In this document: positions 17,617 to 21,965 of the stretch, one piece after another
How the letters are laid out: each line of letters starts with the position of its first letter
Numbering within the stretch: position 1 is the first letter of the stretch
Assembly: GCA_963664115.2 (NCBI GenBank)
Contig: CAXWPJ010000002.1
Span: 736,001-800,000 of the forward strand
Source of the DNA: Terriglobia bacterium
GTDB lineage: Bacteria; Acidobacteriota; Terriglobia; 20CM-2-55-15
Length of the DNA: 64,000 nt
Direction of reading: 5' to 3'
Position numbers and translations under genes: made by a program
The notes under the pieces: model-generated
Seen by the model: only the letters and a program-made list of their open reading frames with translations
Told to the model about the DNA's origin: nothing
Database searches by the model: none

Positions 17617-17879
17617 GAACTCTCTACCTCACTACTGTCGCTTGTAAACTGAAAAAGCTGGAGAAAGTCTATAGAACGAACGGGTTGGAAGCAACGATTG
17701 GAATCAGCAGGATTCTCAACGTCCGACAAGATGATCTATGAAAGGGGATGTCAAGAGAAACAGCTCCCCGATGGCCGGCCAGACGGACACTTTTGTCGTG
17801 ACAGCCAGCCCCTCTACCGTTATGTGAAGCCCTGGTTCCGGCAATCCGGAGCGAAATCGTACATCTTTAAGACGGTCGA

Positions 17880-18100
17880 TTCAGAAACTGAACAGCATAT
17901 GGGACGGCATGTGCCGACCATGGATCTATCTGAGCCTCGAAGGCTATCGCTGTTTCAGGTCGTGCGAGGGGGGATAGAGATTTAAAAGTGTCCTCTGGAC
18001 GTATCCAGGGACCACATCTTGTGCAGATCCTCACCCTCGATCCTCAGTTGTTCCGACTCCGTCTAACGACTCAGTACGGCTCTACCGGTCACGGATCGAA
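17880..18100 (-). ncRNA. Putative bridge/seek RNA of the IS1111 element (boundaries approximate)
   Basis: Two guide-hairpin-guide units: ACAAGATG/TAAATC match the target; ACAGCGAT/ATAGATC match the circle junction. Confidence 0.65.
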
Positions 18101-18105
18101 ACGGC

Positions 18106-19170
18106 TTATGTTGTCATCCAGCTCAGTTTCTTTGGATCGAACGATTCTCCTTTCTTCCAAAGCGTCAGCACCAGTGCGGCGATCTTACGGGCCAGAGTGA
18201 CCCGCGCCATTTCCTCCCGCATCCCACGCATCTGGAGACTCTCCAGATAAATCCGATACGGCTCGCTTTGTTTTCCCGATGCCGCGGCTGAGAAGAACAC
18301 CGACTTCAATCGCCGGTTGCAGTTCGCATTCAATCCGCGTGTGGCCACCGGTTTCCTCCGTCGCACCACACGTCCACTCTGCATCTCATACTCCGCGCTC
18401 ATGTGGGTCACCACACCCAGGCCACTGTAGCTCCAGAACTGCGGTGTCGTGCGGAATCGGTACGGCGTGTCCACGATGGCGACGATCTGTGCCGCCCGAA
18501 CCGGTCCCAGTTGTGGAATGGTCTCGAGCAGTTTCACCGCCTCATGGTGCCGGCCCTCCACTCGCACCGCTTTTCTGGATTGTTTCCGCAGCAACTGGAC
18601 CTGGTCCAGTTCCGCATACAACCATCGGGCGCGCTGCCTCATCCCCGGCTCGGTCAGCTTCTCCAACCACTGTTCGCGCTGACTCGGCCGATAGACTCCG
18701 TCCTTCGGTGTCGGGATCCCCCGTCCCCGGTATATCGCTTTGATCCGCGACATCACCCGTTGCGTGTCCAACTGGAACGTGTCATAGGCCTGCACCAGTT
18801 GCTTCAATTCTCGCGTCGCTTCATGGCCGTGATACACCGAGCGCAACAGTCCCACCCGCAACAGCTCGGCCAGCTTCCGCGCATCCGGCTTATCCCCCTT
18901 CGACCCTTCTTGCATCCACTTGTTCTGTCGCGGATCGCACACCACCACCTCGCTCACCCACGGCCGGATCACTTCCGATAACCAGCCCGCTTGCGTGGTC
19001 TCCTCCAACCCCACGTGCATCGGCCCACTCAATCCCTCCAGCAGCCGTGTGATACTCCCCGCCTCGGTTTCCACGATCGTTTCAAACACCAGTTTGCCGC
19101 TCCCGTCTCTCACCGCAACCACCGTCGTTGCCTGGTGCACATCCATACCCATATACTTGTCTTGTTTCAT
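18106..19170 (-). CDS. IS110-family DEDD transposase/recombinase
   Basis: MGMDVH, GLEET, KGDKPDA, TIPQLGP, YSGL, ARKIA motifs. Confidence 0.92.
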   Translation of the reverse strand: MKQDKYMGMDVHQATTVVAVRDGSGKLVFETIVETEAGSITRLLEGLSGPMHVGLEETTQAGWLSEVIRPWVSEVVVCDPRQNKWMQEGSKGDKPDARKLAELLRVGLLRSVYHGHEATRELKQLVQAYDTFQLDTQRVMSRIKAIYRGRGIPTPKDGVYRPSQREQWLEKLTEPGMRQRARWLYAELDQVQLLRKQSRKAVRVEGRHHEAVKLLETIPQLGPVRAAQIVAIVDTPYRFRTTPQFWSYSGLGVVTHMSAEYEMQSGRVVRRRKPVATRGLNANCNRRLKSVFFSAAASGKQSEPYRIYLESLQMRGMREEMARVTLARKIAALVLTLWKKGESFDPKKLSWMTT

Positions 19171-19588
19171 CTCGAACGCTCCTTTTCTGGGATCAACGCT
19201 GTATACGTTGATCAGGTTGTTGAGTGAGTCTTCTCTCAACAACCCCCAGTCTAGGGGCGTCCTTTCATACTGCGATTTATCAGGACTTGACCCGGCATCT
19301 CTGTCTCCGCCGACTTCCCCGAAGCCGACTTTTGGGTCGTTAATGCTGCCCATTCCTAAACGCTAGGCGACTACTCATTACCTATGCAGTGAAACACCAC
19401 CAAACCCCTTTGAAATTTCGTCGTTACAAAGCGGCCAGCCCTCAGAAAACCCCCTTGCCCTGCACCTTAGGCTTCCGATAATCTGGCTGCTACAATAACG
19501 GGAGAGTAACCTGCGCTTGCTCAGGTTGACCTAATCGGGCCGAGGGCGCGATCCTTTTCGAGAACCGCGAGAACCGGAGGATTTCATC

Positions 19589-21554: not shown

Positions 21555-21789
21555 TCGAAACCATGGATTGCCGCTATGCTATGTTGGGATGATTTAAAGA
21601 AGCGAGTAATCTGGCTTCACGTTCAAATCGCGCTAAACGATCAGCGTCTCTCGCAAACTCTTCAGGGAGAGTCTTGATGGCAACTTCACGACCGAGCTTC
21701 GTATCCTTCGCACGCCACACTTCTCCCATTCCACCCTTGCCCAGGAGTGTGCTGATCTCGTAGTGACCGAGTTTGGTGCCGGGTTCCAT
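21555..21789 (-). pseudogene. Ser/Thr kinase N-terminal remnant (longest copy)
   Basis: [71 protein letters not shown], then frameshifted AIHGFE. Confidence 0.9.
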
Positions 21790-21861
21790 AATCGTGGTCT
21801 TCCAGAACAGTGTTAAGAAGGCTGGGGGCAGTCTATAGAAGGAGTGGGAGAGCAGGCAATG

Positions 21862-21965
21862 AATTCTCAACGTCCGACAAGATTTATCGGGACTTGACCT
21901 CGAAAATCAGGGAACCGGGACACGTTCCTTCAGTTCTTCAAACCAGTTTTGAACGATGTTGATCT
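21862..21965. repeat. Array junction copy 8
   Basis: aattctcaacgtccgacaagatttatcgggacttgacc plus reverse QINIVQNWFEELKERVPVP*. Confidence 0.9.

Follow-up and report, generated by a model that had tools for sequence, protein, structure and literature searches.

A multi-copy IS110-family element of IS1111 layout with a predicted guide RNA and a GA core

Main finding

The window analysed here, a stretch of 64,000 nucleotides from a Terriglobia bacterium, contains an intact IS110-family element that is present in several copies in the genome and has the layout of the IS1111 group, and its predicted bridge or seek RNA very probably steers the DEDD recombinase to the target ACAAGAT-GA-TTTA in the centre of a palindromic repeat, with strand exchange predicted at GA. 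What supports this reading directly is the ends, the copies, the target, the covariation of guides with flanks, and a core that changed in step with both right-hand guides. RNA guidance in IS110/IS1111 elements has been known since its description in 2024, so the basic finding is an expected one.

The element, its copies and its ends

17733..19275, minus strand: whole insertion sequence with both copies of the GA core (1541 bp counting one core)
18106..19170, minus strand: IS110-family DEDD transposase, 354 aa (PF01548 and PF02371; D10, E56, D93, D96, S258)
17733..17734, plus strand: GA core, right end (from the register of ends and guides)
19274..19275, plus strand: GA core, left end (from the register of ends and guides)
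17737..17745, plus strand: sub-terminal inverted repeat of the right end, TATGAAAGG, 2 nt inside the core (from sequence)
19261..19269, minus strand: sub-terminal inverted repeat of the left end, 4 nt inside the core (from sequence)
17749..17754, minus strand: TTGACA pointing outward, a candidate -35 box for a promoter at the circle junction (from sequence)
17714..17732, plus strand: left half of the interrupted 36-bp palindromic repeat, with the left target ACAAGAT at 17726-17732 (from sequence)
19276..19290, plus strand: right half of the target repeat, with the right target TTTA at 19276-19279 (from sequence)

The genome holds seven copies of the element, all of which encode an identical protein; six are intact, measure 1541 bp with 0-6 differences and have differing flanks, and the left end of the seventh is split by another insertion. 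All seven right ends and all seven left ends meet one identical point of the repeat; the target is fixed, and the ends share the short core without a longer target duplication. At C9:938030-939880 of this genome (G000), other mobile DNA has broken into the left end of one copy at CTAG, and C12:161204 retains the left end of an eighth copy as an orphan, likewise adjoining TTTA.

The sub-terminal inverted repeat is 9 bp long and perfect, the IS1111 group being characterised by such repeats of 7-17 bp. About 370 bp lie 3' of the transposase gene in the right end against about 100 bp 5' of it in the left end, and within the element RNA the match to the top strand lies 5' of that to the bottom strand, the first guide being complementary to the transposase-coding strand and the second to the other. 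The same layout is described for IS1111 elements in section 12 of PMC11208160 and sections 6 and 9 of PMC11187229, and the arrangement proposed in the preliminary description, an RNA 3' of the gene with a target loop followed by a donor loop, is supported. The element may thus be regarded as IS1111-type by layout, leaving aside the family placement of its transposase.

Both PF01548 and PF02371 score above cut-off in the transposase, and its five catalytic residues are invariant in 39/39 proteins of the clade, E56 aligning to the ISCro4 motif. The full-length NCBIfam IS110 model gives 122 bits, below its cut-off of 140, and in place of the GL-P----S(t)G motif the protein reads GL-V-THMSA. It shares 23% identity with the classical IS1111-type protein that this genome also encodes, is only remotely similar to the IS621 and ISCro4 proteins (E 3e-5 and 3e-7, respectively), and is at most 29% identical to plasmid proteins among 15 listed of 691 matches. 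There are at least 5804 relatives, and the records of two of these are from Acidobacteriota.

The predicted -10 of the candidate junction promoter is weak (3/6), and a promoter and terminator scan of the linear element gave no signal above chance. Four runs, examined as contigs, which drop rare forms, contained neither a circle junction or empty allele of the locus nor a discrete small RNA; contigs from an RNA library cover the RNA region at a depth of 2-4, as they do the coding region, and this is not evidence of expression.

Target guides and their covariation with flanks

17966..18038, minus strand: predicted target-binding loop of outer stem, guide, inner hairpin and guide (RNAalifold, 24 sequences; pair counts)
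18015..18022, minus strand: left target guide ACAAGAT with the first core base G (95/105 matches, 15 distinct guides)
17979..17984, minus strand: right target guide TAAA with core slot TC (57/60 matches, 15 distinct guides; the core slot follows the core)

The preliminary description had read two units of guide, hairpin and guide on the minus strand: ACAAGATG (18022-18015) with TAAATC (17984-17979) for the target, and ACAGCGAT (17953-17946) with ATAGATC (17929-17923) for the predicted circle junction. The four segments and both hairpins are present at these positions, and the matches to target and junction are as given there. When the 370-nt right end was shuffled 20,000 times with its dinucleotides preserved, the four matches recurred singly at frequencies of 0.005, 0.042, 0.13 and 0.032; given the third of these values, the match of the left donor segment (7/8) is by itself not above chance. 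Both target matches occurred jointly at 0.0002 of shuffles and all four in 0/20,000. A search of Rfam gave no match, and two RNA motifs of the clade are absent from those supplements of PMC11208160 that were searched.

A set of 52 loci (51 fetched and the window) was compiled, in 39 of which the target loop could be parsed; a left flank was available for 36 of these and a right flank for 23, so that, with one row for each distinct guide, 15 were compared per side. Against the flanks of their own loci the left guides agree at 95/105 positions (permutations gave a mean of 41 and a maximum of 68) and the right guides at 57/60 (mean 19, maximum 41); neither value was reached in 20,000 permutations. 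The guide offset for the present element was set by hand in this test and later proved valid across the GA-core lineage; left-guide matching without this element is 88/98. Exceptions are L032, L025 and L073, which match better one base off, and L048 and L030, whose right flanks match poorly. Both target guides are in this way supported.

The fold of 17740-18105 that had been suggested as a check is, for the single sequence, not unusually stable (z -1.47), while the RNAalifold consensus of 24 homologues places all four segments in two internal loops and has compensatory changes in 7/31 pairs. The preliminary description was to fall if guides lay outside internal loops or failed to covary with their targets; in the target loop they are so placed and do covary, and that loop therefore passes. 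The further suggestion that the system is programmable finds its support in natural variation among relatives only: those with the same GA core and other guides occupy other targets, with 48/63 left and 32/40 right positions matching. A sibling RNA has the left target guide ACAAGAG (window 17947-18087 region; run X3 contig 18), and repeat variants with a GAGGAT centre were found in two relatives (G026 and G029).

A GA core in one lineage

In most relatives both ends carry AC on the transposase strand, which is GT in the guide sense; in this element the same register reads TC (GA). Of the 69 RNA-bearing loci, 47 have AC in the right target guide, with AC in 41/43 readable right ends and AA or GC in the remaining two; the other 22, which include six rows from this genome with the window counted twice, have TC in both right-guide core slots and in 18/18 readable right ends. 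In these 69 the core slots of the two right-hand guides go with the core, and no locus mixes TC and AC. One lineage has switched its core and both right-hand guides together. Five other genomes of the family also have elements with the GA core (G001, G002, G013, G021 and G029, with only the RNA read in G013), their donor ends being identical and their target guides different. At the second core base the left target guide does not match, reading GT in 20/20 rows of the GA lineage. In L026, L033, L034, L046, L007 and L013, all GT-core relatives, no recognisable left end lies 5' of the gene, which suggests that the ends of several such relatives have been replaced or truncated.

A GAT core had been proposed for this element. 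Read in register, the two ends and the two right guides give GA instead, and the third base is unshared in 10/10 left ends of GA-core relatives from four other genomes; the T of 'GAT' is therefore incidental, and both GAT and AT are ruled out as the core.

The GA-lineage proteins (five tested) form one branch with a support of 96/93, the element itself standing on a long end branch, and only M177 and Q228 are diagnostic of the lineage (5 GA against 34 other proteins). A protein change that would explain the GA core was looked for at the positions aligned to IS621 A61-G63 and rejected, no diagnostic residue being found there; the residue aligned to G63 is T59 in most proteins of GT- and GA-core lineages alike. 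In IS621 the second core base is an almost invariant T, read by G63 (PMC11208158 section 8), and the engineered cores given in PMC11208160 are AT, GT and TT. No account of a natural GA core was found in the literature searched, a result that covers text alone and does not establish rarity. The change from T to A at the second core base is a natural version of a swap that IS621 resists and, made together with both right guides, points to a compact recombinase for non-T cores.

The predicted donor loop and a competing fold

17913..17965, minus strand: predicted donor-binding loop, open fold (RNAalifold; dominant in 37/37 distinct regions when the RNA ends here)
17947..17955, minus strand: candidate left donor guide AAACAGC with GA (5/7 to the donor)
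17923..17929, minus strand: right donor guide ATAGA with core slot TC (follows the right end in L009 and the core in the GA lineage)
17899..17921, minus strand: alternative hairpin competing with the closing stem of the donor loop (beats the shuffled mean in 35/37 distinct regions, mean z -1.4)
17890..17896, minus strand: conserved segment complementary to the candidate left donor guide, reading GCTGTTC here and GCTTTTC in GT-core relatives (99.4% of cells paired)

The two donor guides of the preliminary description fared differently. The right one holds, since two independent compensations, one following the altered right end of L009 and the other the core switch, support it, and the clade thereby gives comparative support for the reading of the right donor side. 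The left one is doubtful: it matches the donor at 5/7 positions here and reaches no more than 4/7 in the majority of GT-core relatives, and a downstream segment of the RNA is a better pairing partner for it than the donor. Its GAT is also present in GT-core relatives (L009, L042). The complement sits 55 nt downstream and has undergone one compensatory change, which marks the GA lineage. No consistent pattern of handshake-type pairing was seen on inspection of the guide table.

These observations raise the possibility that the element is of the seek type, with the first loop as the sole working guide, the second unit a structural part of a multi-branch fold closed by the helix of the 'left donor guide', and the ends recognised by the protein, mostly at the sub-terminal repeats. 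Such a scheme is compatible with the target half of the preferred explanation, and it would account for a left donor match that chance alone supplies at 0.13, for the pairing of the left guide with the downstream segment (7/7 in GT-core relatives, 6/7 here, with the compensatory change) and for its sequestration in 33/37 distinct longer regions when these are folded; in the RNA of this element, lengthening the fragment lowers the probability that the left guide is unpaired from 0.92 to about 0.3. Furthermore, short RNAs with target matches only sufficed for ISEc11 (PMC11187229 section 14). However, it is a doubtful explanation for three reasons: first, the right donor guide follows both the right end of L009 and the core switch; second, the stem of the open loop is fully paired in 24/24 sequences with one compensatory pair, and RNAalifold prefers the open fold even with the downstream segment included; third, in the GA lineage two matches to the donor were gained by the left guide, against one lost. 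PMC11208160 describes multi-loop donor regions in IS1111 elements, and section 14 of PMC11187229 reports long and short RNAs, leaves the role of the long form open and states as an open question whether IS1111-type RNAs read the donor. The anti-guide, being precise and mutable, makes that question testable.

The target repeat

The 36-bp repeat has 141 intact empty copies in the genome and none in the reversed genome. The copies are clustered, mostly co-oriented and mostly 0.4-10 kb apart, and the repeat is built as 11+6+11, with inverted arms around a variable 6-bp centre, which in 126 copies reads GATGAT (103), TGTCGT (8) or GGTCGT (5) most often. It was found in three of four congeners (9, 84 and 38 matches) and in four of five genomes of one sister genus (1-5 matches), and was not found in the other 51 genomes searched; overall, allowing 2 mismatches, it was not found in 53/60 relatives. 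Of the 22 recurring left flanks, 18 join more than one right flank, which is as expected of site-specific shuffling, though homologous recombination at the repeat could also give it. Restricted to one lineage, built like a recombination site and bordered by shuffled sequence, the target repeat may mark a gene-cassette system of its own.

The repeat as the chromosomal dif was considered and rejected: it occurs in 141 copies and shows neither a conserved XerD arm nor single-copy status, and a separate, single canonical dif-like site (G000 C2:108138, minus strand), identical to the repeat at 14/28 positions, lies about 8 kb from a GC-skew peak. Among the papers listed by a literature search there was none on an IS110 element that targets a Xer-type site. 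Eight IS91-type elements carry a tyrosine recombinase gene (G000 C1:92926 and seven more), and 7/8 start no more than 330 nt from a repeat arm, as against 4.5% of random positions; two begin directly after an arm and the 6-bp centre. Copy numbers of these elements and of the repeat do not track one another (38 sites and 0 matches in G003; 1 site and 44 matches in G017), and only 3/18 IS91-type loci of relatives have an arm upstream. This recombinase is a candidate for the repeat's own enzyme, an insertion hot spot being the simpler account.

The repeat lies between gene modules, both in the window (8635-40400, about 12 sites) and across the genome, and in many of these modules there is a fragment from the beginning or the end of a Ser/Thr kinase-like gene (21574-21870 is one example, the start of ORF 30452-28776 another); the modules so delimited are a possible cassette system. 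A second, classical IS1111-type element lies in the same repeat (G000 C5:47874-49028 and seven more copies or partial copies), inserted about 4 bp to the right of the first's point in the opposite orientation with a TA core; AAGTCCT and CCATCA in its downstream region are candidate target and donor guides, and the target reconstructed for it falls short of the usual repeat by one base. Elements of about 1.2 kb, which from their end motifs and protein start we take to be IS30-like, occupy the 6-bp centre at G000 C2:319234, C12:495125 and C12:547147.

The choice of site could depend on more than base pairing, if the palindromic repeat is recognised by its structure or as a site bound by protein. 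All seven exact 13-mers and 70/72 one-mismatch 13-mers lie inside the repeat, so that sequence and structure are inseparable here; the second IS1111-type element and the IS30-like elements also insert in it; and there is precedent in ISPpu10, for which such recognition is reported, and in IS1202-type elements, for which it is proposed (10.64898/2026.03.19.712850). Nevertheless, this is unlikely, given that relatives with a GA core but different guides are found at flanks that are unrelated and that occupancy follows the guide-matching variants of the repeat. TTTA is the right target in 7/7 occupied and 32/141 empty sites, and the full guide-matching 13-mer is present in 6/7 occupied and 4/141 empty sites (Fisher p 1e-7, with the caution that the occupied copies may not all be independent insertions), so that the guide predicts which variants are occupied. 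That the matches are by-products of chance or of the local palindrome, without RNA guidance, is extremely improbable, because however short each match and however unremarkable the single-sequence fold, guides covary with flanks over 15 distinct guides per side and the core slots change in step.

Proposed mechanism

By analogy with IS621 and ISEc11, the element would excise as a circle whose junction promoter drives both the transposase and the RNA. The transposase would bind this RNA, the first loop of which would pair with the target's two strands and the second at least with the right donor and the core, and strand exchange would follow at the two-base GA core. The left donor side is probably read only weakly by the RNA, with a contribution of the sub-terminal repeats via the protein.

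A bolder proposal, put forward tentatively as a model, is that the donor loop of the clade is a conserved two-state RNA switch, in which the downstream anti-guide locks the left donor guide in a long transcript until the RNA is processed at its 3' end or refolds and so frees it, which would gate excision or insertion. In the same model, the second core base would have changed from T to A by way of both right-hand guides, and the element would make use of this to enter the 6-bp centre of a hitherto undescribed recombination site by which shuffled gene cassettes are bounded.

Comparison with known systems

Among the close systems are the IS1111 seekRNA elements (ISEc11, ISKpn4, ISPa11; PMC11187229) together with the IS1111 bridge RNAs predicted in PMC11208160. 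Shared with this group are the sub-terminal inverted repeats, the short left and long right end, the RNA 3' of the transposase gene with the top-strand match before the bottom-strand match, the fixed site and orientation, and natural re-direction among relatives. The element differs in its divergent 354-aa transposase, which lacks the GL-P----S(t)G motif, in a donor loop with a covarying right guide and a conserved competing fold, and in the GA core.

The bridge recombinases IS621 and ISCro4/IS622 (PMC11208160, PMC11208158; PDB 8wt6, 9t56) are likewise close, having in common with the element the DEDD and serine catalytic set, a target loop followed by a donor loop, target guides of 7 nt on the left and 4 nt on the right around a 2-nt core, and a palindromic repeat as target. 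Unlike in these systems, the RNA is encoded in the right end, and the similarity of the proteins is remote; the second core base is A, whereas in IS621 it is an almost invariant T. Finally, elements of the IS1111-attC group and IS1202 (ISAba32) have as their target, as here, a repeated palindromic site between shuffled gene modules, but the present element inserts inside the 6-bp centre and not beside the site, and its repeat, which differs from the single dif-like site of the host, is by its layout a candidate recombination site.
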